From positions 42,436 to 106,435 of the forward strand of contig JAFSGW010000099.1 of the NCBI GenBank assembly GCA_017440585.1: a stretch of DNA of 64,000 nucleotides, written 5' to 3'. Origin of the DNA: Clostridia bacterium. Its GTDB lineage: Bacteria; Bacillota; Clostridia; UMGS1883. Shown one piece after another: positions 14,828 to 58,201 of the stretch. The notes beneath the pieces were generated by a model. It was not told the DNA's origin. It saw only the letters and a program-made list of their open reading frames with translations, and did no database searches. Positions within the stretch are counted from its first letter, which is position 1. Each line of letters begins with the position of its first letter. The position numbers and the translations under genes are program-made.

Positions 14828-14833
14828 AAAATC

Positions 14834-14923
14834 AGCAATTAGCAATTAGTAATGAGAAATTGAATGAAAAGAAATTTTGCAGGCAAAATTTCTTCCTTAA
14901 TTGCTCATTGCTCATTAATCATT
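14834..14923. repeat. Heptamer tracts in inverted orientation around a hairpin
   Basis: (agcaatt)n...aagaaattttgc-ag-gcaaaatttctt...ttaattgctcattgctcatt. Confidence 0.8.
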
Positions 14924-16012: not shown

Positions 16013-16024
16013 GTTATCTCTGTA

Positions 16025-16222
16025 GCGATATAAATCCCTGTCGGGATTTGCGATATTCCCCTTCGGGGAGCGATATACCTGCGGTGCGATATGTTCGGCT
16101 CTGCCGAACGTGTTATGGGTGTGAGGGATTTATAGCATATCGCATTTTCATTTTAATGAAAATATATCGCATCCGAATGAAATGAGGATATATCGCATTA
16201 TTCCGAAGGAATAATATATCGC
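16025..16222 (+). repeat. GCGATAT/ATATCGC hairpin-chain element, full copy 1
   Basis: GCGATAT at 16025, 16050, 16070, 16086 and ATATCGC at 16137, 16164, 16190, 16216, with a hairpin between successive motifs. Confidence 0.9.
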
Positions 16223-16237
16223 CAAACCGCTTTCCAA

Positions 16238-16278
16238 AATTCTGTGGCAATACACAAAATTTCGGAAAGTGAATATTG
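16238..16278 (+). repeat. 41-bp direct repeat, copy 1 (upstream of AAA ATPase)
   Basis: aattctgtggcaatacacaaaatttcggaaagtgaatattg; 40/41 identical to 17651-17691. Confidence 0.92.
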
Positions 16279-16304
16279 ACTTTAGGTAACGGGTATTATA
16301 TAAT
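16276..16304 (+). promoter_or_regulatory. Sigma-A promoter of AAA ATPase, between repeat copies
   Basis: TTGACT-17-TATAAT; the TTG of the -35 is the last 3 nt of repeat copy 1. Confidence 0.8.
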
Positions 16305-16320
16305 GGAATCGAAAAAACTA

Positions 16321-16349
16321 TGGCAATACACAAAATTTCGGGAAGTGAA
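16321..16349 (+). repeat. 29-bp core of the same repeat, copy 2 (5' UTR)
   Basis: tggcaatacacaaaatttcgggaagtgaa, identical to the core of 17651-17691. Confidence 0.9.
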
Positions 16350-16353
16350 GTTG

Positions 16354-17652
16354 ATGATTGAAAGAAAGAAGTATCTTGATAAATTAATAAGCAAAAAAGA
16401 AAATGGTCTTGTAAAGGTTATTACGGGTATTCGCAGAAGCGGAAAATCATACCTTCTTTTCAATATTTATAAAAGCTACCTGCTTTCTGTCGGGGTCGGT
16501 GAGGATTGCATTATTGAGCTTGCCCTTGATGATGATGAAAATATAAGGTACCGTAACCCCTTGGAGCTTGGTGAATATCTGAGAAACAGGACGGCAGACA
16601 AGGAAAGAATGTATTATGTTTTCCTTGATGAAATACAAAAGGTTGTAACCATTCAGAACCCATATATAAAGGATGTTGAAGATAAAATCGGGTTTGTAGA
16701 TGTTCTTTTGGGGCTTATGAAACGCGAAAATATAGATCTGTATGTTACGGGCAGTAATTCAAAAATGCTCTCGTCGGATATTTTGACGGAGTTTCGCGGC
16801 AGAGGCGATGAAATAAGGGTTAACCCGTTATCCTTCGGCGAGTTTTATAGTGCATTCCCCGGCGATAGGCATGACGCATGGCAGGAATACTGTACTTACG
16901 GAGGATTGCCTCTTGTTTTAAAAAAGCAAACTCACGAAGAAAAGGCAAAATACCTTCAAACCTTGTTCGATAAAATATACTTGAGCGACATAATGGAAAG
17001 AAACAAAATACTTTACGAGAAAACAGTTTTAGATGATATACTGAACATTGTGTCATCTTCTATTGGCTCACTTACAAATGCAAACAATATTGCGAAAACC
17101 TTTAAAAGCAATAAGCAAATCAGTATTGATACGACAACTGTAGCTCGGTATCTGGACTTGTTTATTGATGCGTTTCTCATTTTTAAGGCGGAGCGCTACG
17201 ACGTAAAGGGCAGAAAATATATAGGCTCGCCTTTGAAATACTATTTTTCTGACATAGGGCTTCGTAACGCAAGGCTACAGTTCCGGCAGATGGAAGAAAA
17301 TCATATAATGGAAAACATTATTTATAACGAGCTTATATACCGTGAGTTCAATGTGGATGTGGGCGTTGTCGAATACTTTTATCGTGGCGAAGACAAAAAG
17401 AGCAAACGTGCAAGTCTTGAAATTGATTTTATTGCAAATAAAGGCAGTCAGAAATATTATATTCAATCTGCCTTATCGGTAGCCGATGAAGAAAAACGAA
17501 ATCAGGAAATACGCTCACTTAAAAACGTGGGGGACTCTTTCAAAAAAATTGTGGTTGTGAAGGATAATATCATACCTTATAATGATGAAAACGGAATTTT
17601 CTATATCGGCATTGAGCAGTTTTTGCTTGACGAGAGTATAATGAATGGGTAA
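16354..17652 (+). CDS. AAA+ ATPase (AAA_14 plus DUF4143 family)
   Basis: Walker A GIRRSGKS, Walker B VFLDE, TGSNS, FRGR, YGGLP, KYYFSDIGLRNA, ENIIYNEL, EIDF..YIQS. Confidence 0.9.
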   Translation: MIERKKYLDKLISKKENGLVKVITGIRRSGKSYLLFNIYKSYLLSVGVGEDCIIELALDDDENIRYRNPLELGEYLRNRTADKERMYYVFLDEIQKVVTIQNPYIKDVEDKIGFVDVLLGLMKRENIDLYVTGSNSKMLSSDILTEFRGRGDEIRVNPLSFGEFYSAFPGDRHDAWQEYCTYGGLPLVLKKQTHEEKAKYLQTLFDKIYLSDIMERNKILYEKTVLDDILNIVSSSIGSLTNANNIAKTFKSNKQISIDTTTVARYLDLFIDAFLIFKAERYDVKGRKYIGSPLKYYFSDIGLRNARLQFRQMEENHIMENIIYNELIYREFNVDVGVVEYFYRGEDKKSKRASLEIDFIANKGSQKYYIQSALSVADEEKRNQEIRSLKNVGDSFKKIVVVKDNIIPYNDENGIFYIGIEQFLLDESIMNG

Positions 17653-17691
17653 TTCTGTGGCAATACACAAAATTTCGGGAAGTGAATATTG
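17651..17691 (+). repeat. 41-bp direct repeat, copy 3 (overlaps ATPase stop codon)
   Basis: aattctgtggcaatacacaaaatttcgggaagtgaatattg. Confidence 0.92.
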
Positions 17692-18214: not shown

Positions 18215-18328
18215 GAGGGCTTATGATAGTTTATTTATCACTTATGAATGGGCGTGAAAACGGGCGATTAATAATCGCCCCTACAATGTGTTTGCGCCTA
18301 TCTGTAAGTGATAAACGCATAAGTCCTC
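18215..18328 (+). promoter_or_regulatory. Long imperfect stem in pnp leader (RNase III-type site) with a REP in its loop
   Basis: gagggcttatg/cataagtcctc, tttatcactta/taagtgataaa and tgggcgtgaa/tttgcgccta pair (with G-U pairs). Confidence 0.65.
18261..18284 (-). repeat. Dispersed REP palindrome
   Basis: cgggcgatt-aat-aatcgcccctac (GTAG head on - strand). Confidence 0.8.
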
Positions 18329-20537: not shown

Positions 20538-21764
20538 ATGAATAAGATTACAACTTTAAAAAACGGACTCAGGATAATAACCGAGGTTATGCCCGGTGCA
20601 CAGAGCGTTTTTGTGGGCGTGTGGGTCAAGGCAGGAAGTGCCAACGAAAAGGACAGTGAGTGGGGCATAAGCCACTTTATTGAGCACATGGTTTTCAAGG
20701 GCACAGAAAAAAGAACCGCACAACAGATAAGCGAAGAAACAGACTATGTTGGCGGTCAGGCAAATGCCTTTACATCCAGGGACTGCACCTGCTACTACTC
20801 AAGAACGCTTCCTGAGCATATGGAGCTTTCCTTCGACATCCTTTCCGACATTTACCATAACCCCCGTCTTTTAAAGAAGGATATTGACCTTGAGAGGGGC
20901 GTTATAAAAGAGGAAATCATGATGTATGAGGACTGCCCCGAGGATCTGGTTCAGGACAGGCTTCTTGCTGCAGTTTACCCCGACAGTGCAATAGGAAGGG
21001 AAATTGCAGGCAGTTTGGAGTCGGTAGATGGCTTGAACCGTGAAAAAATGGTTGACTATATGAACCGTTATTACACTCCCGACAACACGGTTATAACCGT
21101 TTGCGGAAGGTTTGACGAAAAGATGGCAATAAGCCTTTGCGAAAAGTATTTCTCCCACCGTATCACAGCCTTCTCCGGCAACAGGGTAATTGTGCCCCGT
21201 TTTGAAAGCGTTGACGTAAGGTGGGAAAAGGACATTGAGCAGGCTCATTTGTGCCTTTCCTATCCTACAGTAAAGCTTGGAAGCGACAAGGAAAGCTATA
21301 CATTATCTGCCTTAAGTAACATTTTCGGCGGAAGCATGTCCAGTAGGCTTTTCAACAAGGTCCGTGAGGAACGTGGCCTTTGCTACAGCGTTTATTCCTA
21401 CTCCTCCCAGACAGAGGTTTCGGGGCTTTTCAGCATTTATACAGGTCTTAATGCAAATTGCCTTAATGCTGCTGAAGAGGTTATACATAATGAGATAGCA
21501 CGCCTTTTAAAGGATGGCATAACCGACTACGAGCTTACAAAGGGCAAGGAACAGCTTAAGGCGGCAATTCTTATGGATATGGAAAACCCCTCAAGCCGTA
21601 TGAGTGCACTTGGCAAGGATATGCTCATTTATAACTCTGTTAAGCCTATTGAAGAAATTGTAAGAGATATCGACTCTGTCACAAAGCATGACATTGAAGA
21701 GGCGGCACATATGGTTTTTGAAAAAAGAGGTGCACGTGGTGTGCTTCTGCCCATTGAGAGGTAA
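20538..21764 (+). CDS. M16 family zinc peptidase (MlpA/YmxG-like)
   Basis: HFIEH motif, NAFTS, SSRLFNKVREERGLCYSV; usual position after pnp. Confidence 0.92.
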   Translation: MNKITTLKNGLRIITEVMPGAQSVFVGVWVKAGSANEKDSEWGISHFIEHMVFKGTEKRTAQQISEETDYVGGQANAFTSRDCTCYYSRTLPEHMELSFDILSDIYHNPRLLKKDIDLERGVIKEEIMMYEDCPEDLVQDRLLAAVYPDSAIGREIAGSLESVDGLNREKMVDYMNRYYTPDNTVITVCGRFDEKMAISLCEKYFSHRITAFSGNRVIVPRFESVDVRWEKDIEQAHLCLSYPTVKLGSDKESYTLSALSNIFGGSMSSRLFNKVREERGLCYSVYSYSSQTEVSGLFSIYTGLNANCLNAAEEVIHNEIARLLKDGITDYELTKGKEQLKAAILMDMENPSSRMSALGKDMLIYNSVKPIEEIVRDIDSVTKHDIEEAAHMVFEKRGARGVLLPIER

Positions 21765-21842
21765 TTAGCAATTAGCAATTAGCAATGAGCAATTAGCAAT
21801 TAAGGTAAAAGGCGGTCAATGACCGCCTTTTTTGTATTGATT
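21762..21842 (+). repeat. Heptamer tract plus terminator hairpin; direct repeat R1
   Basis: t(aatKagc)5-aattaaggt-aaaaggcggtc-aat-gaccgcctttttt-gtattgatt. Confidence 0.92.
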
Positions 21843-21959
21843 AAAAGCATTTGAAAACAATGTTCGCCGTAAAAAGTGTAACTGTTCAGCAAAAAAACGT
21901 TGTATTTTTTGTGATTTGGTGTTATGCTATACTTGTATTATAATTACGGAGGTGCGTGT

Positions 21960-23267
21960 ATGTACCGAATTGCTATTGAAGAGCTATTTAAATGGAAACA
22001 AAGCAAACGCCGAAAACCTTTGATTATCGAAGGTGCCCGTCAGGTTGGTAAAACCTGGCTGATGAAAGAGTTTGGCAGGCAGGCGTATGCAGATACCATA
22101 TATATCAATTTTGATTCCAATTCCCAAATGGCAGAGCTGTTCTCTTCTGATTTGGATACAGAACGTTTGATTATGGGGCTGGAGCTGTATGCAGGACGAA
22201 AAATTGACCCTGAAAATGCTTTGCTGATTTTTGATGAAGTGCAAGAGGTTCCAAGAGCACTCAGCTCTCTTAAATATTTCTATGAAAATGCACCGCAGTA
22301 TCACATTATATGTGCCGGTTCCCTGCTTGGTATTGCTTTGCATCAGGGTACATCATTCCCTGTGGGCAAGGTGGATTTTTTGAAGCTGTATCCTCTCTCT
22401 TTCAAGGAGTTTTTGATGGCAACCGATAAAGAACGGTTTGCAGAACTGATTGATAAAAAAGACTTCCGGATGATTACAAGCTTCAAGCAAACATATATTG
22501 ATGCCCTGAAGCATTATTACTTTGTTGGCGGTATGCCCGAAGCCGTACAGAGCTTTGCAGAAAACAAAGATTTTAACGAGGTTCGTGAAATTCAAAGGCG
22601 AATCCTCGCAGCCTATGAACAGGATTTTTCCAAGCATGCTCCCAACGAAATTGTGCCCAGACTTCGTATGCTGTGGAACAGCATTCCTTCTCAGCTGGCG
22701 AAAGAAAACAAGAAGTTCATCTATGGTATTGTTCGTGAGGGTGCCCGTGCGAAGGACTACGAAACTGCGATTATGTGGCTTTGTGATTGCGGTCTTGTTC
22801 ATAAAATCACCCGCGTCAATACGGCAGGCATCCCTTTGAGGGCGTATGAGGACCTGAAAGCATTTAAGCTGTTTATGGCAGATGTTGGTCTCCTTGGCTG
22901 CATGGCAGGTCTTCGTCAGAGCACTTTGCTTGACGGCAACGACCTTTTTGTTGAGTTCAAGGGTGCACTTACGGAGCAGTATGTTTGTCAGCAGTTAAAG
23001 ACCATTCCGGATTTAGATGTTTACTATTATACCAATGACAGAGGCTCCTGTGAGGTTGACTTTGTCGTTGATACAGGCGAATTGATTGTTCCTGTTGAAG
23101 TAAAGGCAGAGGTTAACCTCAGAGCTAAAAGCCTTAAGACGTACCGGGAAAAGTTTTCTCCTGAGGTTTCTGTTCGTACATCTATGGCAGACTATAAAAA
23201 AGAAGAATGGCTCGTTAATCTGCCACTGTATGCGATAGATCAGATTAAGGGTATTGAAAATAATTAG
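21960..23267 (+). CDS. AAA+ ATPase (AAA_14 plus DUF4143 family)
   Basis: GARQVGKT, LIFDEVQ, AGSLLG, FPVGKV, GGMPE, EVDFV..PVEVK; GGAGG SD. Confidence 0.92.
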   Translation: MYRIAIEELFKWKQSKRRKPLIIEGARQVGKTWLMKEFGRQAYADTIYINFDSNSQMAELFSSDLDTERLIMGLELYAGRKIDPENALLIFDEVQEVPRALSSLKYFYENAPQYHIICAGSLLGIALHQGTSFPVGKVDFLKLYPLSFKEFLMATDKERFAELIDKKDFRMITSFKQTYIDALKHYYFVGGMPEAVQSFAENKDFNEVREIQRRILAAYEQDFSKHAPNEIVPRLRMLWNSIPSQLAKENKKFIYGIVREGARAKDYETAIMWLCDCGLVHKITRVNTAGIPLRAYEDLKAFKLFMADVGLLGCMAGLRQSTLLDGNDLFVEFKGALTEQYVCQQLKTIPDLDVYYYTNDRGSCEVDFVVDTGELIVPVEVKAEVNLRAKSLKTYREKFSPEVSVRTSMADYKKEEWLVNLPLYAIDQIKGIENN

Positions 23268-23328
23268 CAATTAGCAATTAGCAATTAAGGTAAAAAGGCG
23301 GTCAATGACCGCCTTTTTTGTATTGATT
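23261..23328 (+). repeat. Heptamer tract plus terminator hairpin; direct repeat R2
   Basis: t(aattagc)3-aattaaggt-aaaaaggcggtc-aat-gaccgcctttttt-gtattgatt; supplies the ATPase TAG stop. Confidence 0.92.
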
Positions 23329-23610
23329 TTTGTATTGGTTAGTGGTAAAATGTACTTGCGACACAGTTGAATATTTGCCCTGAAGAAGACGCATACTGTT
23401 TGGTAAAAACGTATGCGTGGTTCGTATTGTCTTCTTTGGGAAACAACTGTGTCGCAGCAGGAACCAAGCTGCGTTTTTCGTGCGTAGCTCCGGCTGCGCA
23501 CTTTTTTTGTATATTTATGTATAAGGTAGGCTTGCTGTCAGGGGACTTATTTGAAAAGACAAAGATCAGTAACAAAAAAATCTGAAATCGAATGCAAAGG
23601 AGGGTTTTCT

Positions 23611-23877
23611 ATGAAAACAAAATGGAATGAAAAATCTACTGCTGATAAAATAATGTTAATATTAAGGATTGTTATATCCGTTGTAGTTTTAGTTGGTGCA
23701 GCATTACAGATAACCGGTGTGTGGGATAAAGCACTAAATGTAGTTATTCCTCTTTTGAGCGTTTTGATTCTGATACAGTCTATCGGGGAGCATAGAGAAC
23801 AGAGAAAGGCTTCAGCTATTGTTGGTTATGTTTGCTTTGCAGCTATGGTTGTTATGATTATAGGTGCAATGCTGTAA
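23611..23877 (+). CDS. Small 3-TM membrane protein
   Basis: AAGGAGG SD; three hydrophobic segments. Confidence 0.75.
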   Translation: MKTKWNEKSTADKIMLILRIVISVVVLVGAALQITGVWDKALNVVIPLLSVLILIQSIGEHREQRKASAIVGYVCFAAMVVMIIGAML

Positions 23878-23891
23878 AGTGAGGTGCGAAT

Positions 23892-24464
23892 ATGAAAATA
23901 GCAATTATTATAGCAGTATGTGTTGCACTTTTTATAGTATTAAAACCTATGAAAAAGCCGATTTTTACATTTGCAGTTATTCTTGCTTTCATTGTTGGCT
24001 TCGGTGCTGTTCAATACTTTAATCGGCCCGATGGCTCAACACTTGAAAGCCGTGAGGAAATCTGTGCGGAGTTTCCAAGAGGTAAGGATTGGAAAATAGC
24101 CATTGAGCAGGAATTTAACGATTATATCATAAGCGGTATTTATTCCCGTAACGAAATGAGTGGTATAGCAGTTTTCAAGCCTTATGGAAACGGCAAATAT
24201 AAGCTCCATTCAAGAGAATGGAGAGAACAAGACAGAATCATAATAACAGGCATTACCATTGATAATTTATGGTATGATGTTATTTGGTTTAACGGAGCTA
24301 AAACAGATTATGCAGAAATAACCTACACCCTTGACGGTGTTAAGCAAGAGCCGATTATACATAATGCAAAAGGCATGGAAATCTTTATAAATCCTGCTCC
24401 GACCAATGATGTGTACGGCATTGATGTAGTTTATTATGACGATGCCGGAAACAAATATGAGTGA
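23892..24464 (+). CDS. Hypothetical membrane-anchored protein
   Basis: GAGGTG SD; N-terminal TM segments then soluble domain. Confidence 0.75.
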   Translation: MKIAIIIAVCVALFIVLKPMKKPIFTFAVILAFIVGFGAVQYFNRPDGSTLESREEICAEFPRGKDWKIAIEQEFNDYIISGIYSRNEMSGIAVFKPYGNGKYKLHSREWREQDRIIITGITIDNLWYDVIWFNGAKTDYAEITYTLDGVKQEPIIHNAKGMEIFINPAPTNDVYGIDVVYYDDAGNKYE

Positions 24465-24476
24465 GGAGCTGATGAT

Positions 24477-24785
24477 ATGCACATAGGCATTGCAACAGGT
24501 TTATTTATAGTGTCATATATTGTCCAGTTATTGCTGTGTTTTAAGGCTAAAAGCACACAGACAAAGCTGATTCCGTTTTACTTCGGACTTTTTGTTGCAT
24601 TTTTCGGATTGCTGGTATATGCAGAAGTTTTCGGATATATGAGTACAGGCAGTTTTATTGGTAACATGCACATTTTATCAGCAATTATAATCTGGATAGC
24701 GGTGTTGATAATATACATCGGTCTGCTCCTTGCAAAGATTACTCATAGCATAGTTAAATACATTCAAAGGAGGAATGATAAATGA
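24477..24785 (+). CDS. Hypothetical membrane protein
   Basis: GAGGAG SD; three TM segments. Confidence 0.7.
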   Translation: MHIGIATGLFIVSYIVQLLLCFKAKSTQTKLIPFYFGLFVAFFGLLVYAEVFGYMSTGSFIGNMHILSAIIIWIAVLIIYIGLLLAKITHSIVKYIQRRNDK

Positions 24786-26275
24786 GAAAATTTACAGGTT
24801 ATATTCCGGCTGCACTCTTTACGGGATTTTATCTGCTTTCGGGACTGACTGGAGTACGTATAACAATGTCAATGCTTTTAGTCTGGCTTGTTTGTTTTTG
24901 GCTCTCTGCCTTCTTTTTGCATAAGGGCTTGTTCTGGGGTGGTATTTTCGGCTTGTTTCCTGCACTCAATATGATATTTATGGGAACTCAGTACACGGGA
25001 CCGGTTATCAATGTTGAAATCCTTCTTGGAATTATACTGATACTCTTTTACGGCATTCTTGGTTTTTACCTTTGGAAAAAGCGAGACGACATACCAAAGG
25101 CAGGAACTAAAGAAATTGTGATAATGGTTGTTAAGGTTGCCCTGACGGTAGCTGTTGTAATGGCAAGTGCTTATATAGCTGTAATATCGGGTATGATTTT
25201 AATATCTGAGGGAATAAACCAAGCATTTGCATATATTGGAATGCTTGTTATTCCGTCTTTATTCTTACCTTTGATATGGCTTAAAAAGAGAAAGATATTC
25301 TTTTTAATATGGCTGATACCTGCCGTAATCTATTTTGTCGCATTAGGTGTTAATTATGCAGTGGTGAAGTATGATGAAAGCATTACCATAAACACAGCAC
25401 CGAACATCAATGTTCACGAATATTTGCCCTTTGAAGAAGATTCAAAGATTGTAAAAACAAGAAGCGAAACACTGCAGTTTACAGATAATCTCCCCAAAAT
25501 TGACGGAGCTGCCGCACTGTTCCCGGTGTATTCAGCATTTGTAAATGCAACATACCCCGAAACGACAAAATTATACGATGGGCATTTTGAATATAACAAT
25601 ACCCCCGCAGGATATAAGCTCTTATCGGAAAAAAGTACGGATATATTCATAGGCGTATATCCGTCAGAAGAGCAAAAGGCTGATGCCAAGGCAAAAGGAA
25701 CAAAGTATATCTATACACCTATCGGAACAGAAGCCTTTGTTTTCTTCGTACACAAAGACAATCCCATTGAAAATCTCACAACGGAGCAAATACAGGGCAT
25801 TTATTCAGGCGAGATTACGAATTGGAAACAACTCGGTGGAAAGAATGAAGAAATCGTAGCCTTCCAGAGAAATGAAGGCAGCGGAAGTCAGAGTATGTTA
25901 GAGCGTTTTATGGGCGATAAGCCTATAATGGAAGCTCCGACAGAGCTCAAAAACGATTTAATGTCAGGAATTATTGAAAGAGTGTCGAACTATAAGAATA
26001 AGACAAATTCAATAGGTTTTTCTTTCAGATACTATGTTGAAGGCATTATAAAGAACCCTGATATTAAAATGCTTTCCGTTGACGGTGTTGCACCGACAGC
26101 AGAAAACATTAAGAACGGTAAATATCCCATTGTAACACCGATATACGCTGTTACTTATGAAGAACAGACAAATGAAAATGTTAATAAGCTCCTTGATTGG
26201 ATATTGTCTGAAGAAGGGCAGTATATCATCGAAGAAACGGGCTATGTAGGTATTGTATCGGAATTTGAAGAATAA
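24782..26275 (+). CDS. Multi-TM protein fused to PstS-like (PBP) substrate-binding domain
   Basis: About 7 TM segments, then DGAAAL, EAFVFFV, IYSGEITNWKQLGG, FQRNEGSGSQ, IGFSFRYY. Confidence 0.85.
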   Translation: MRKFTGYIPAALFTGFYLLSGLTGVRITMSMLLVWLVCFWLSAFFLHKGLFWGGIFGLFPALNMIFMGTQYTGPVINVEILLGIILILFYGILGFYLWKKRDDIPKAGTKEIVIMVVKVALTVAVVMASAYIAVISGMILISEGINQAFAYIGMLVIPSLFLPLIWLKKRKIFFLIWLIPAVIYFVALGVNYAVVKYDESITINTAPNINVHEYLPFEEDSKIVKTRSETLQFTDNLPKIDGAAALFPVYSAFVNATYPETTKLYDGHFEYNNTPAGYKLLSEKSTDIFIGVYPSEEQKADAKAKGTKYIYTPIGTEAFVFFVHKDNPIENLTTEQIQGIYSGEITNWKQLGGKNEEIVAFQRNEGSGSQSMLERFMGDKPIMEAPTELKNDLMSGIIERVSNYKNKTNSIGFSFRYYVEGIIKNPDIKMLSVDGVAPTAENIKNGKYPIVTPIYAVTYEEQTNENVNKLLDWILSEEGQYIIEETGYVGIVSEFEE

Positions 26276-26288
26276 GAAGGTGCACACT

Positions 26289-28178
26289 ATGAAAAAAATA
26301 TTATCCATTATCCTATCGATCACAATGCTGTTTTCAATGACAGCAGTAGCATTTGCAGAAGAGGTTGCAACTACGGTAGCAAGAGAAGTGCCTGGCATTA
26401 TCAAAGTCGGCGTTAATGCAGAATATGCTCCGTTTGAGTATTACGATGAAGAAGGCAAGCTTACAGGCTTTGATATTGATTTGATGAATTGTATCGGCGA
26501 AAGAATAGGTTTTGATGTTGAATATGTTGATATGCCGTTTGATATGCTTGTGTCTGCCGTTTCAAGCGGTAAGGTTGATTGTGCCATTTCAACCTTTTCG
26601 GTTACAGATGAAAGAGAATATTATATGGATTTTACAAGACCTTATCTTGGGGCTAATGTAACGCATAAAGACGGTGAAACAACATCTAAGGCACTTAAAA
26701 TGTATTCAATCGTTTTCAGAGAGGGCGTTGCTGATTCTCTCTACAAGTCATCAATGCCGACAGATTACGAAAAGCTCTTTATACTTGTAAACGGAACTGT
26801 TGAAGAACTTATATCCGACGGAACGATAGAAAAACTTATTGCAAAGTATGACCTTAATAAACCTTATGATGAAGAAGCAGACTATGAATACGGATATTAT
26901 GAATATATTGTATTAAAGTCAACAGTTGCAGACAAAGACGGTGCGGAAATACCGAAACTTGAAAGCTGGGAAGAGGCTACAACCGTTCCTGCTCCGAGCG
27001 AATGGGCGTCAAAGGATGTTGATTTTGCCCGTGCTGTAGGAATTACTGACGACAGAGATTATCTCTACAAAGAAAATATTACCCGTGAAGAATTTTGTGA
27101 GCTGATTTATAATCTTATAGTATTAACAAGTGATGAAATCACCGCACCTGTAACGGATAGCTTCACAGACACCAAAAACGATAAAATCCTCATGCTGAAC
27201 GGTTTGGGTATTATCAACGGAAAGTCAGCAACGGAGTTTGCACCAAACGATTATCTCACCCGTGAAGAAGCTGCAACGATTATTGTTCGTATGGTAAACA
27301 GGATGTTTCCGATGGCAGCAACAGAAATGTGGTTTGAGTATGACGATATAAACGAAGTTTCCGAATGGGCATCCGATGCTGTTCAGACAATCAGTAATTT
27401 AGGTTTTATGAACGGTGTCGGCAATAATAAATTTGCTCCAAAAGAAACATATACAACAGAGCAGGCAATCGCAACTCTTGTAAGAGTTTTCAGAGGTGCA
27501 GAAGCAATCGGAGCTATTGAACACGATTCAAGCATTGGAATCATCGGCGGAGCCGATAAACCGACAGAGCTTGTAGTAACCGATACGATTAAAGTTGATG
27601 ATTTTTATATTGACGAAGCAATTAAGCTTATTACTGAGTCGGGCAGGCTTGCATCTGACAAAAACTTTATCAGCATGTATACGGCTAACTATGATATGAC
27701 GGAAAAAATATTAACTCTTGGTGCCACTGATTTTAACAAACCGAAAGATATATACTACATTTCTGCTGATCGTGAAAAGATGGTTGCCGATATAGAGGCC
27801 TTAGCAAAAGCTGAAGGTGTTGATATAAGAGATTTGGGAGAGCACTGGTTTGAACACATTTGGAGAAAACTTAATTTTTCCACTCTTGCAAGCCTGATAA
27901 ATGCATCCTATGGTGCTGAAAACCTTGCGGCTCTCACCATACTCACAAACAGCAGAGGTTATATAATGCCTGAAGACTTCAAAAACGACTTTGCTTTGTT
28001 TGTTCAGTATGAGGGAGGTTATTCTGCGATAGTGTCTTTCTCGGAATTTGGTGATGGTGTTGTAAGTGCGAATATGTCCTTCGTAAAAAATGGTGATAAA
28101 GACAATGTGTTTGTGAGAATGTACGAAATTACACAAGGCTTGGGAGAGGAAAGCATTATTGCAGCAAAAGTAGAATAA
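26289..28178 (+). CDS. Secreted fusion of family-3 amino-acid-binding domain, SLH domains and unknown C-terminal domain
   Basis: Signal peptide; YAPFEY..GFDIDL SBP_bac_3; SLH motifs ITREEF, FAPNDYLTREEAA, GFMNGVGNNKFAPKETYTTEQA. Confidence 0.85.
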   Translation: MKKILSIILSITMLFSMTAVAFAEEVATTVAREVPGIIKVGVNAEYAPFEYYDEEGKLTGFDIDLMNCIGERIGFDVEYVDMPFDMLVSAVSSGKVDCAISTFSVTDEREYYMDFTRPYLGANVTHKDGETTSKALKMYSIVFREGVADSLYKSSMPTDYEKLFILVNGTVEELISDGTIEKLIAKYDLNKPYDEEADYEYGYYEYIVLKSTVADKDGAEIPKLESWEEATTVPAPSEWASKDVDFARAVGITDDRDYLYKENITREEFCELIYNLIVLTSDEITAPVTDSFTDTKNDKILMLNGLGIINGKSATEFAPNDYLTREEAATIIVRMVNRMFPMAATEMWFEYDDINEVSEWASDAVQTISNLGFMNGVGNNKFAPKETYTTEQAIATLVRVFRGAEAIGAIEHDSSIGIIGGADKPTELVVTDTIKVDDFYIDEAIKLITESGRLASDKNFISMYTANYDMTEKILTLGATDFNKPKDIYYISADREKMVADIEALAKAEGVDIRDLGEHWFEHIWRKLNFSTLASLINASYGAENLAALTILTNSRGYIMPEDFKNDFALFVQYEGGYSAIVSFSEFGDGVVSANMSFVKNGDKDNVFVRMYEITQGLGEESIIAAKVE

Positions 28179-28184
28179 TTAAAC

Positions 28185-28213
28185 AAAAAAGGCGGTCACT
28201 GACCGCCTTTTTT
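28185..28213. terminator. Bidirectional terminator; third copy (R3) of the R1/R2 hairpin
   Basis: aaaaaaggcggtc-act-gaccgccttttttt. Confidence 0.85.
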
Positions 28214-28351
28214 GCGATATGTGGCGTTGCCACGCGATATATTTCACTTTGTGAAATGCGATATAACAAAAGGAACGCTTCGCGTTCCTTCTGTTGCGAT
28301 ATGACAGAAAACGTGTTTTCTGTCGTGAGGTAAAATGCTTTGCATTTTACC
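28214..28351 (-). repeat. GCGATAT hairpin-chain element, half copy
   Basis: GCGATAT at 28214, 28234, 28258, 28296, each followed by a hairpin (gtggc/gccac, atttcac/gtgaaat, aaggaacgc/gcgttcctt, gacagaaaac/gttttctgtc). Confidence 0.88.
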
Positions 28352-29405
28352 TGCCTGCAGATATTCTTACATTTTTCTGGTGGGTTGCATTAACCTTGCC
28401 GTCATTATGACGGATGGAATTTAAAAAGTGGATGTCGAATACGCCATGGGCATTATTGCCCTTTACCCAGTCATAATTATAGCCTGCACCATAGTCATCA
28501 CTTCGCCAGCTTGTCCACACTCCGCCGGGGGCACCGTCGTTACCTGCGTGGAGCTTACTTGTGGCAGATGCAGCAATTTTTCTGCCGTTATATATTATTA
28601 TAACGGGACGGCTCGTCCAGTTCTGACCGCCGAAAATTGAGTTCATTTTGCTTGTATCGGAGGCTGTCAGGGGCTCACAGTCGGCATGACCTGAGCCGGT
28701 GGTACGCTTTGCCTTAAACGTCTGCCCGGTATAGTAGTCCTGCACGGTAAAGGTTGCCCCTACGGGGATAACGTACTGTGCGGCGTTCCACCAGTCAAGG
28801 TATTCGCCGTATTTTGCACCGGGAGTGGATGTTACGGGCACGTGGTGCACGGGGATGGTAAGCTTTTTGCCTGCATAAATGGAAGAATTTTCATTAAGTC
28901 CGTTTACCTCTAAAAGCTCGCTCATGGGTATGCCGAAATTGTTGGCAATGTTCCAGTAGGTGTCGCCTGATTTAACCGTATACGTAGTGTAGGTTATGTA
29001 CGGCTTTGTTGAAGCGGAGGAGCCGGAGCTTGAGCCTGACGACGGGGATGAAGGGATTACAACCTTATCGCCGATTTCAAGCCACGAGGAGGTTGTGGCA
29101 TTGTTTGCCTTTAAAAGTGTGTTGAAGTCAACGCCGTACCATTGTGAAATGAGCCAATAAGTATCGCCTTTTTTTACCGTATGGATTTTCTCCGTTGGCA
29201 CATATACAACATCACCTATTTCAAGCCATGAAGAGGTGGTGGCGTTGTTTGCCTTTAAAAGTGTGTTGAAGTCAACACCGTACTGCTTTGAAATTGTCCA
29301 GTAGGTGTCGCCCTTTACTACCGTGTGGTTTGCCGCCTGCACAGGCGTGGACAAAGTTAGTGTGGCAAGTGAAATTGCCATTAGGTTTTTGATTTTCATA
29401 AGCAT
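28347..29405 (-). CDS. Secreted protein with three LysM domains
   Basis: Signal peptide; HTVVKGDTYW, HTVKKGDTYW, YTVKSGDTYW; C-terminal HADCEPLT..GVFDIHF domain. Confidence 0.9.
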   Translation of the reverse strand: MLMKIKNLMAISLATLTLSTPVQAANHTVVKGDTYWTISKQYGVDFNTLLKANNATTSSWLEIGDVVYVPTEKIHTVKKGDTYWLISQWYGVDFNTLLKANNATTSSWLEIGDKVVIPSSPSSGSSSGSSASTKPYITYTTYTVKSGDTYWNIANNFGIPMSELLEVNGLNENSSIYAGKKLTIPVHHVPVTSTPGAKYGEYLDWWNAAQYVIPVGATFTVQDYYTGQTFKAKRTTGSGHADCEPLTASDTSKMNSIFGGQNWTSRPVIIIYNGRKIAASATSKLHAGNDGAPGGVWTSWRSDDYGAGYNYDWVKGNNAHGVFDIHFLNSIRHNDGKVNATHQKNVRISAGR

Positions 29406-36469: not shown

Positions 36470-36892
36470 ATGAGCAGAAAATCGGCAAGAGAAAATGCAT
36501 TCAAAATTATTTACAATTGCGCTCTTATGAAGGAGCCTCCTCACGATATGTGTGAATATTTTGAGGAAACCATGAAGGACGAAATGTGGGCAGAGGCATC
36601 CATGGACAAAAAGGACATGGAATATATGCGCTCCGTTGTTTTCGGTGCAGCTGAAAAGAAAAACGAGCTTAACGAAAAAATTGCACCCCTTCTTAAAAAG
36701 TGGGACGTTGCCCGTCTTCCCAAGGTGAGCCTTGCAATACTTCAGCTTGCCATCTACGAAATCGAAGAGGTTGACGACGTGCCCGACCGTGTGGCCGTAA
36801 ACGAAGCCATTGAGCTTGCGAAAACTTACGGTGAGGACGATACTTATAAGTTTATAAATGGCGTATTGGCAGAATATTTAAAGAATAAATGA
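36470..36892 (+). CDS. nusB: Transcription antitermination factor NusB
   Basis: RKSARE, VAVNEAIELAKTYG, FINGVL. Confidence 0.95.
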   Translation: MSRKSARENAFKIIYNCALMKEPPHDMCEYFEETMKDEMWAEASMDKKDMEYMRSVVFGAAEKKNELNEKIAPLLKKWDVARLPKVSLAILQLAIYEIEEVDDVPDRVAVNEAIELAKTYGEDDTYKFINGVLAEYLKNK

Positions 36893-36946
36893 GCAATTAG
36901 TAATTAGCAATGAGCAATTAAGGTGGAATTTTGCCATGCAAAATTC
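36888..36946 (+). repeat. Heptamer tract plus GAATTTTGC hairpin
   Basis: aatgagc-aattagt-aattagc-aatgagc-aattaaggtg-gaattttgc-cat-gcaaaattc; supplies nusB TGA stop. Confidence 0.85.
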
Positions 36947-58151: not shown

Positions 58152-58172
58152 TGTTTTCCTCCTTCTATGAGA

Positions 58173-58201
58173 ATGGGCGACCTCAGGTCGCCCGTATTTT
58201 T
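58173..58201. repeat. REP-like palindrome at the topoisomerase stop
   Basis: atgggcgacc-tca-ggtcgcccgt; same GGGCGACC/GGTCGCCC arms as the RAYT REPs. Confidence 0.7.

Follow-up and report, generated by a model that had tools for sequence, protein, structure and literature searches.

How does a row of accessory genes come to lie between two convergent core genes with a copy of one and the same hairpin at its joints? The question is raised by a stretch of DNA from a Clostridia bacterium (UMGS1883), a window of 64,000 nt (the whole stretch analysed here) on contig JAFSGW010000099.1 (C58) of assembly GCA_017440585.1, a draft genome of 2,225,520 bases in 103 contigs that we call G000. Between an M16 peptidase gene and a convergent gene for a LysM cell-wall protein, the window carries a gene for an ATPase with a DUF4143 domain, a leader RNA with its promoter, and five cargo genes, punctuated by three hairpin copies that we call R1, R2 and R3. 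A preliminary description, made from the letters alone, had proposed sequential insertions that each duplicate a terminator related to repetitive extragenic palindromes (REPs), giving an integron-like growth point. Our comparisons make it probable that two successive insertions each duplicated the resident terminator of the core gene pair as a target duplication, and that the copies are not recombination sites. The comparison set comprised nine congeners (G001-G009; with G000, ten genomes of the genus), for which the DNA 3′ of the M16 gene was fetched along with that of one neighbouring genus, and a wider set of 41 related genomes, in which L-numbers denote loci and C-numbers contigs.

The terminator hairpin and its copies

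The interval and its two flanks contain the following features.

20538-21764, + strand: M16 peptidase gene, the core left flank (Pfam Peptidase_M16 and M16_C), with orthologs of 72-88% amino acid identity in 9/9 congeners
21762-21842, + strand: R1, with the M16 stop codon, five AATKAGC heptamers, AATTAAGG, the hairpin (21811-21827), a T-tract and GTATTGATT
21863-23254, + strand: DUF4143b module, ~97 nt of conserved upstream sequence plus an open reading frame (ORF) without its own last codons
21960-23267, + strand: DUF4143b gene (Pfam AAA_14 and DUF4143)
23261-23328, + strand: R2, with three heptamers, AATTAAGG, the hairpin (23297-23313), a T-tract and GTATTGATT, which includes the −35 box of the leader promoter
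23323-23351, + strand: sigma-70-type promoter from a promoter scan, TTGATT-17-TAAAAT with TG before the −10 box, kept in G007 and G009
23352-23512, + strand: predicted structured leader RNA, a long three-helix hairpin plus an intrinsic terminator at 23480-23501 (fold and covariance model)
23611-28178, + strand: five-gene cargo encoding proteins of 88, 190, 102, 497 and 629 aa
23611-23877, 23892-24464 and 24477-24785, + strand: the small cargo proteins (88, 190 and 102 aa), hydrophobic by eye and without firm Pfam hits
24782-26275, + strand: g4, 497 aa, with a hydrophobic N-terminal part (by eye) and PBP_like_2 (Pfam)
26289-28178, + strand: g5, 629 aa, with SBP_bac_3 and SLH (Pfam)
28177-28213, + strand: R3, with the hairpin (28191-28207, loop ACT) and A- and T-tracts
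28208-28340, no strand assigned: GCGATAT repeat element between R3 and the LysM stop codon (from sequence; weak Rfam Gut-1 match at 28176-28262)
28347-29405, − strand: LysM cell-wall protein gene, the core right flank, convergent with M16 (Pfam LysM, three times)

The three repeats lie where the preliminary description had placed them, and Pfam matches bear out its gene order. R1 and R2 each begin at a stop codon and run on through AATTAGC-type heptamers, AATTAAGG, an A-tract, the hairpin GGCGGTCAATGACCGCC, a T-tract and GTATTGATT. Their common stretch, put at about 65 bp before, measures ~67-81 bp; they differ by two heptamer units (five in R1, three in R2) and by one A, extra in R2, and are 100% identical across a core of 36 nt (21807-21842 and 23293-23328). 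R3, in which a loop change had rightly been seen, has in common with R1 and R2 only the A-tract, the hairpin and the T-tract (~30 nt shared between R2 and R3), its segment 28187-28222 being 81% identical to the 36-nt core, and the hairpin consensus over the three copies is GGCGGTCA(A/C)TGACCGCC.

The hairpin has a perfect 7-bp stem and a 3-nt loop, with an A-tract 5′ and a T-tract 3′, and its predicted fold has −16 to −23 kcal/mol whichever strand is taken (R1, −16.4 for the + strand and −16.9 for the reverse; R3, −21.4 and −22.6 on the two strands). As far as sequence and fold prediction go, it has the GC-rich stem, short loop and U-tract on both strands of a bidirectional intrinsic terminator; a terminator scan placed sites at 21807-21831 (R1) and 23292-23318 (R2), and the position, between the stop codons of convergent genes, is kept in relatives (G004 and G003). 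On these predictions the hairpin is the ancestral bidirectional intrinsic terminator of the convergent M16/LysM pair. Allowing up to two mismatches, a search with GGCGGTCANTGACCGCC returned three matches in the window, all exact, against none in 100 shuffles, and R1-R3 were again the only matches in the whole draft genome. Over the ten genus genomes the pattern occurs at the M16-LysM locus only (with three copies in G000, two each in G007 and G009 and one each in G003 and G004), and the thought that it might simply be a common terminator sequence can be set aside.

The proposed kinship with REPs fares less well. G000 does contain a REP-like family, GGGCGACCAWTGGTCGCCC, at 15 sites, which by eye are flanked by GTAG/CTAC and of which 3/15 have A/T-rich flanks, and the likeness of the R hairpin to this family is confined to the lengths of stem and loop. 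With three copies at one locus and a stem sequence unlike GGGCGACCAWTGGTCGCCC, the R hairpin is ruled out as a member of a REP or of a bacterial interspersed mosaic element; it appears instead to be the orthologous M16/LysM terminator. REP-like sites in the window lie at 1249-1908, 18256-18280 and 58169-58193, four of them within 700 bp at the window start.

The heptamers are spread more widely. Under a strict scan the genome yields 48 arrays, each with two to five AAT[TGC]AG[CT] units; 34 begin at a stop codon, 34 continue into a word like AATTAAGG, and each array precedes a different hairpin (by eye, in a looser listing). Because heptamers occur genome-wide with differing hairpins, the locus-specific part of the repeats is only the hairpin with its immediate flanks. 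The period of seven means that three units put TAG in all three frames (read from the sequence), and such arrays may be a translational stop pad or a small mobile 3′-end element. AATKAGY arrays together with AATTAAGG set TAG or TGA in all three frames; in the window they lie at 14830-14850, 21763-21797, 23262-23282 and 36888-36922, and the G003 variant of the heptamer is AATTAGG.

M16 and LysM are adjacent and convergent in 7/9 congeners, at a spacing of ~27 bp to 2.2 kb versus 6,582 bp in G000.

G004: 27 bp from one stop codon (M16) to the other (LysM), consisting of AAAAAAGGCGGTCACTGACCGCCTTTTT only
G003: one hairpin, with AATTAGG heptamers ahead
G007 and G009: two hairpin copies around a ~385-bp unit of promoter, leader and small ORF
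G008: a diverged hairpin copy, with another gene in front
G001: ~60 bp, with a different hairpin
G005: ~2.2 kb of different content
G006 and G002: in the fetched ~15-16 kb, no LysM ortholog
G000: 6,582 bp between M16 and LysM, with three hairpins

Insert boundaries in other species coincide with hairpin copies, as the preliminary description had anticipated. R3 is orthologous to the lone terminator of G004 and to the copy on the LysM side in G007 and G009, and the left junction of the unit in G007/G009 can be aligned with R2 and with window positions 23320-23510, including TTTTTT-RYTGTTGATT. The −35 hexamer of the leader promoter, TTGATT, starts at 23323, inside R2, and is what had earlier been noted as ‘gtattgatt’. 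R1 has the same 15 nt after the stem as R2 and then diverges. Because R1 carries this −35 box before it diverges, the R1/R2 duplication would post-date the leader and span the box, and the DUF4143b module would have come after the leader unit. Like a target-site duplication (TSD), the R1/R2 repeat is single at the corresponding sites of G003, G004, G007 and G009. We regard the M16-LysM interval as an insertion site, or growth point, for accessory genes, a view supported by its content across the congeners.

The history that we favour would begin with one bidirectional terminator between M16 and LysM. In an older event, shared with G007 and G009, a unit of sigma-70 promoter and terminator-containing leader would have inserted and duplicated around itself the ~28-30-bp palindromic terminator (A-tract, stem-loop and T-tract), the cargo of this event being five foreign envelope genes in G000 and a 53-codon ORF in G007/G009. 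In a recent second event a 1.4-kb single-gene DUF4143 module, without a stop codon or terminator of its own, would have duplicated a target of 67-81 bp made up of the M16 stop codon, the heptamers, the terminator and the −35 box of the leader promoter. Nothing would be lost thereby: M16 would keep the R1 terminator, DUF4143b would gain a stop codon and a terminator in R2, and the leader promoter would stay intact. Opposite-strand breaks at the palindrome borders, or wider, could leave long overhangs whose fill-in would produce the duplication; for R1/R2, and for duplications of coding sequence described below, a wider stagger or another route would be needed, such as Campbell-type integration of a circle sharing the segment. 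At the level of sequence, the comparisons establish the single, double and triple states of the hairpin, the homology of the junctions, the transfer of the module between genomes and the generality of terminator duplication in G000.

The inserted units

The 161-nt leader has a minimum free energy of −68.5 kcal/mol (z −6.7 versus shuffles) and matches its covariance model at 144 bits. The model was seeded from three sequences and searched in the 41 related genomes, 31 of which have full-length matches (up to 18 per genome; family loci L065-L087); the other copies in G000 are at C68:2083-2248 (− strand) and C63:22541-22712 (+ strand). In an alignment of 24 members, itself fitted to the covariance model, 90.8% of cells pair and 41/50 pairs have changed on both sides, values that 0/500 shuffles match, and slid controls pair at 25-53%. 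Members have a promoter just upstream, UGCGACA...UGUGUCGCAGCA, the apex UUGGUAAAAAUGCAUGCUCU and a near-invariant terminator CGUGCGUAGCUUCGGCUGCGCAC; the apex AAAAAUGCA is complementary to UGCAUUUUU directly before the terminator, and this pair co-changes to AAAAACG/CGUUUUU in the window copy and two others (by eye). The genes that follow leaders are mostly cell-surface or envelope genes, among them an SLH and trypsin-like protease, three BspA-type leucine-rich repeat proteins and a GDSL lipase; further ones encode a glycosyltransferase, an AMP-binding enzyme and a LytTR regulator. The leader looks like a transcription-attenuation leader of a surface-protein regulon, to judge from these sequences. 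At L077, in another family (G040:C71), three same-strand leader copies lie within 1.3 kb (677-852, 1501-1674 and 1733-1905), two of them nearly adjacent.

Rfam 15 gave no match covering 23352-23512 at E≤1, only a weak, below-threshold match of terminator type on the opposite strand (23291-23378) that clips the first bases of the leader. Over the leader copies in eight family loci there was none at E≤0.1, and the four weak matches in these loci lie off the leaders, bar a sub-threshold MIR2679 match overlapping the leader in L073. This RNA, which Rfam lacks and which is found ahead of cell-surface genes, could represent a novel regulatory element in gut Clostridia. Among 25 matches with up to 1.5 kb downstream, the only leader units flanked by a repeat are the copies at the M16 locus and one G004 locus (25 nt).

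Behind the leader, the five cargo genes are compositionally foreign: their GC content is 0.35-0.39 and their GC content at third codon positions (GC3) 0.27-0.38, against means of 0.440 and 0.448 (5th percentiles 0.378 and 0.35) over the ORFs of the genome (n=878), and CCG supplies 21/47 of their proline codons, compared with 7.8% genome-wide and 2/76 in six flanking core genes (rpsO, pnp, M16, LysM, radical-SAM and a 267-aa ORF). These computed profiles uphold, for the five cargo genes, the earlier impression by eye that the enclosed genes are AT-rich and CCG-biased; it does not extend to DUF4143b, whose GC content of 0.431 is average for the genome. The pair g4-g5 recurs at other loci in G006, G002 and G069 (g4 ~75-78% and g5 ~50-59% amino acid identity), and g4 without g5 in G059 (73%); no leader RNA was found ahead of these homologues in the four genomes.

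In G007 and G009 the same promoter and leader are followed by a 53-codon hydrophobic ORF (L021:4173-4334, and L023), and no homology was found between this small-ORF region and the five-gene cargo. Because the two cargoes are unrelated, what stands behind the leader has evidently been exchanged or enlarged without a new hairpin copy; the five genes were gained with no additional hairpin. Of the earlier proposal that each insertion duplicates a REP-like terminator, the duplication bracketing the units holds, and neither the REP-like nature of the repeat nor the gain of all five genes by that route does. The stop codon of the 53-codon ORF, TGA, lies in the loop of the second (duplicated) hairpin (by eye), so that this frame, like that of DUF4143b, is closed by the duplicated target.

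DUF4143b is an AAA+ ATPase with a C-terminal PD-(D/E)xK-type domain, by Pfam and motifs (Walker A at residue 25, Walker B at 88, an intact D...EVK at 367/380-382); no solved-structure relatives were found by sequence. One published source lists DUF4143 as a PD-(D/E)XK family of unknown function (PMC3424549). PADLOC labels the gene PDC-S01 (E = 1.6e-189 for 21960-23267), together with the two relatives introduced below, DUF4143a at 16354-17652 (2.1e-104) and the copy on C37 (1.5e-160), and from such profile matches it is a candidate single-gene defence system. Window positions 21863-23254 are 80-81% identical in nucleotide sequence to the DUF4143 genes of G006 and of G035, which belongs to another family and whose M16 protein is only 44% identical to that of G000. 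The homology runs from ~97 nt before the start codon to about four codons before the stop; in the three copies (G000, G006 and G035) the C-terminal tails and the flanking DNA differ, and in G000 the stop is the TAG in the first heptamer of R2. This degree of identity shows a module that has evidently crossed bacterial families horizontally.

Duplicated targets elsewhere in the genome

The other DUF4143 genes and a short mobile element of G000 were searched for comparable repeats, a flanking repeat being defined as an exact direct repeat of at least 17 nt between 500 nt upstream and 400 nt downstream of an ORF. G000 has four DUF4143 genes, three of which have locus-specific exact flanking repeats. 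In a control of 587 ORFs of 300-600 aa with full flanks from G000, five were repeat-flanked: the three DUF4143 genes, and 2/583 others that are explained by GCGATAT and heptamer repeats. The loci concerned, besides DUF4143b, are as follows.

16238-17691, + strand: DUF4143a module, with its gene at 16354-17652, between a sugar kinase gene and rpsO
16238-16278, 16314-16354 and 17651-17691: 41-nt repeat of DUF4143a, containing TGTGGCAATACACA, over the −35 box, in the 5′ untranslated region and after the stop codon
C37:9379-11660 (L088): an array of terminator, DUF4143 gene, the same terminator, XRE-type gene, divergent SLOG/DUF1273-like gene and a different terminator (the latter two genes named by eye from sequence)

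On C37 the terminator AAAAAACTCCGCAT(C/T)ACTGATGCGGAGTTTTT stands on both sides of the DUF4143 gene in G000, and the same site in G004 and G001 has one such terminator, between convergent genes, again as in a TSD. The C37-type module is 1.3 kb long, 80-81% identical to copies in G031, G002 and G035, and ends two to three codons before the stop. DUF4143a differs: because its empty sites in G006 and G002 are without the 41-nt repeat, the repeat belongs to the element, where it resembles an operator or what is left of a tandem copy.

Of 47 places in the 41 related genomes with a DUF4143 gene, 46 were examined (the remaining one being a fragment at the start of a contig; contig ends cut a few loci, and at L195 and L196 the longest ORF is possibly not the DUF4143 gene). 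The nine repeat-flanked loci among them include the G003 ortholog of DUF4143a. The duplicated sequence varies: an 87-nt exact repeat of the 3′ end of the upstream gene at a G003 locus, ~35 nt of the 3′ end of the upstream gene in G005, ~75 nt from the stop codon onwards including a terminator in G006 (27 nt at a second locus there), and more than 100 nt at ~80% identity in G027 (by eye). By sequence comparison, target duplication around DUF4143 genes is frequent, not obligatory.

A second class of insertion emerged from a scan for low-copy repeats (20-mer seeds occurring up to three times on the scanned strand; repeats of at least 24 nt at a spacing of 250-12,000 bp), in which many repeats were terminator hairpins ~256-290 bp apart with a 230-bp element between them. 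This element is a MITE (a miniature transposable element with inverted repeats); its inverted ends read CAG[CA][GC]TGTCGA, and it has a subterminal hairpin. G000 contains 14 full-length copies, four with a ~105-bp internal insert, and five further rows are partial copies; copies outside the window include L209:218-447 (C12), L210, L211, L212, L213, L215 and L216. Exact flanking repeats of 23-31 nt accompany 7/14 full-length copies, and most others have imperfect hairpin pairs. Each exact repeat is a complete stem-loop with A- and T-tracts, 0-2 nt from the element ends, and loop orientation identifies the flanking hairpins as direct copies. So sharp a coincidence of duplication and palindrome suggests recognition of the hairpin or cruciform itself. 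The MITE is present in 9/9 congeners and 0/31 more distant genomes, and mutual identity of up to 97% among the G000 copies suggests recent activity; eight MITE loci had no Rfam match at E≤0.01. The motif of its terminal hairpin is found in many further Clostridia genomes; among the matches listed, 26 of the 75 sites with enough flank have straddling exact repeats of 16-99 nt at a spacing of 218-387 bp, most of which are strong stem-loops. On C73, an XRE-type gene (by eye) and a small gene lie with a one-ended MITE copy between two copies of a 31-nt terminator.

Candidates for the source of these elements were sought among proteins. No ORF recurs beside the G000 copies, and the largest protein cluster at the terminal-motif loci (4 of 79) resembles ABC ATPases, judged from one member sequence. 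The IS3-like element on C77, which has the only rve-domain gene in G000, was rejected as parent of the MITE, its ends being unrelated, and a PF01609 transposase was not found in G000. Also rejected was GTATTGATT as a MITE end, TGTCGA, the resemblance being most simply a −35 box.

Taken across these loci, the genome has a clear tendency, at the level of sequence, for inserted DNA to have a copy of target sequence on each side, very often an entire terminator. One could go further and suppose structure-directed insertion in gut Clostridia (Oscillospiraceae and neighbours), whereby an enzyme would cut both sides of an extruded terminator palindrome and the insert, be it a member of the widespread MITE superfamily (220-390 bp), a promoter-leader unit or a DUF4143/PDC-S01 module, would land between two complete terminators. 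We offer this generalisation tentatively and with low confidence, and a bolder version of it would make the DUF4143 AAA-ATPase/PD-(D/E)xK nuclease itself the inserting enzyme.

Several observations weigh against the reading of the array as two insertions with target duplication, or against its extension to other loci. Exact flanking repeats accompany only 9/46 of the DUF4143 genes examined; two of these nine, DUF4143a of the window and its G003 ortholog, have the element-borne repeat that is missing at empty sites, and the closest relatives of the DUF4143b module, in G006 and G035, have no flanking repeat. The R1/R2 duplication of 67-81 bp is longer than the 23-31 bp of the MITE, and no terminal inverted repeats of MITE type were seen at the R1, R2 and R3 junctions. 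No transposase was found adjoining any MITE copy, and among the matches listed no protein cluster is common to more than four of the 79 terminal-motif loci. In four gut-metagenome runs no strain of the same species with an empty or partly filled site was found, and the one-hairpin state of G004 could be either original or a product of loss.

Competing explanations and known systems

The rival that survives best would have circles that already include a terminator copy enter through homologous recombination of the host, Campbell-type, with no dedicated enzyme. Flanking repeats are variable and mostly long (17 to more than 100 nt), as if repeat length were homology length; the G027 copies fit donor and recipient copies in their divergence over more than 100 nt; and recombination between repeats would also account for single-hairpin relatives as losses. 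The model is silent on how the first circle got the target sequence at a new locus, and the MITE duplications, bounded by the palindrome within 0-2 nt of the element ends, look like the product of an enzyme's cuts and not of homology. Among the joint rows listed for the four gut-metagenome runs there was neither an R1-R2 or R2-R3 joint nor a circle junction, a weak test with short public contigs; two ‘go-back’ joints (26287 to 23269) proved to be the M16 3′ end of a related strain running into heptamers. We consider this route doubtful for the array as it stands.

It is also unlikely that the ancestor had several hairpins with cargo, and that the short intervals of relatives are deletions between direct repeats. 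Direct repeats of 28-80 bp can serve as substrates for deletion, and G004, with one hairpin and an R3-type loop, is among the four congeners closest to G000 by M16 identity, as are the two-hairpin G007 and G009. Set against this are the foreign composition of the cargo, the presence of the DUF4143 module at unrelated loci in other families at 80% nucleotide identity, the near-identity of R1 and R2 when congener M16 proteins have diverged to 72-88%, and the single hairpin, with heptamers, of the distant G003.

That the hairpin might instead serve as an analogue of attC, with R-bounded cassettes exchanged by a site-specific and possibly hairpin-binding recombinase encoded elsewhere, is very unlikely, although the units are bounded by copies of one locus-specific hairpin and all cargo points in the same direction. 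The likeness to integrons, or to clusters of attC sites lacking integron-integrases (CALINs), lies in co-oriented accessory genes separated by hairpin copies at a single growth point. attC sites are imperfect inverted repeats of ~50-150 bp with R''-L''/L'-R' boxes and extrahelical bases; judged from its stem and loop, with no attC model run, the R hairpin has no such architecture, and it appears instead as a textbook bidirectional terminator, single between the same core genes in relatives and copied as a target duplication. No IntI-type recombinase adjoins the array: a whole-genome search with PF00589 found no tyrosine recombinase on C58 and two matches, both on C70. Integron cassettes are promoterless and rely on a common promoter, whereas here the leader unit has its own promoter and the DUF4143 module ~97 nt of conserved upstream sequence; a promoter of the module's own is proposed only because these ~100 nt are conserved, and the terminator R1 lies ahead of the module. 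The shared extent is unequal (~80 nt for R1/R2 versus ~30 nt for R2/R3), and at other DUF4143 and MITE insertions what is duplicated is either coding sequence or a hairpin of quite another kind. What remains of the integron-like growth point of the preliminary description is a variable interval, the integron being an analogy only.

An assembly artefact, in which strain variants were threaded through a short repeat into a chimeric array, is extremely improbable even in a draft of 103 contigs with 36-80-nt repeats that can mislead assemblers, because public metagenome contigs (one run, X1, being possibly the source sample) bridge R1 (21570-21980), R2 (22982-23638, with 0 differences) and R3 (27848-29047) with unique sequence on both sides, and independently assembled congeners show the two-hairpin form. 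With the M16 protein as query, a metagenome scan gave 80 loci, none above 45% identity and hence none from the genus.

Returning to insertion with duplication of the target, we compared the array with known systems. In mechanism, insertion sequences with long duplications and hairpin-targeting elements come nearest to it. For the IS1202 group of the IS1202 family, a TSD of 16-28 bp with no defined target consensus is on record (PMC10132070). The likeness is a duplication of tens of bp flanking the insert. In the present case the duplication is a whole terminator palindrome, and with the gene modules it measures 35 to more than 100 bp; the ends of the MITE are CAG..TGTCGA rather than TGT...ACA, no IS1202-like or other transposase was found beside any copy, and the gene-carrying units at the M16-LysM locus are without inverted ends.

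The usual explanation for hotspots of horizontal gene transfer and defence islands in chromosomes is integrases, prophages or recombination between homologous flanks. The M16-LysM interval is like them in that the same core genes enclose variable content, a candidate defence gene (PDC-S01) among it; here the signature is a duplicated terminator. Group IIC introns, as well as the IS110/IS1111 and IS1397-type elements that go into REPs or attC sites, insert beside or inside hairpins with no duplication or one of a few bp. They share a preference for intergenic palindromes or terminators, whereas at the present loci the whole hairpin stands on both sides.

A literature search, which was not exhaustive, found no prior description of a target duplication equal to a terminator hairpin. 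What appears new is that a whole terminator is duplicated and that this goes together with single-gene defence modules; duplications of such length are in themselves known. The data speak for an enzyme recognising terminator palindromes, and the copies would be scars that happen to be useful in that each transcription unit gets a terminator. If insertions regularly duplicate the terminator, accessory and defence genes could be added between convergent core genes with transcription on both sides undisturbed, and repeated hairpins would be a readable record of successive insertions. Array building by this route would differ from that of integrons; on the tentative structure-directed reading it would amount to a terminator-seeking, integrase-free growth of accessory arrays at convergent gene pairs. 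The comparisons also flag DUF4143/PDC-S01, a very common ATPase-nuclease, as a self-contained unit crossing family boundaries.

Finally, the GCGATAT element between R3 and LysM is missing at that position in G004, G007 and G009. Its Gut-1 match at 28176-28262 scores 24 bits against a gathering score of 50. Clusters of small hairpins bounded by GCGATAT lie at 16023-16230 and 28208-28340 in the window and at L085:614-686, and two GCGATAT clusters have sub-threshold Gut-1 matches of 41.5 and 41.1 bits.

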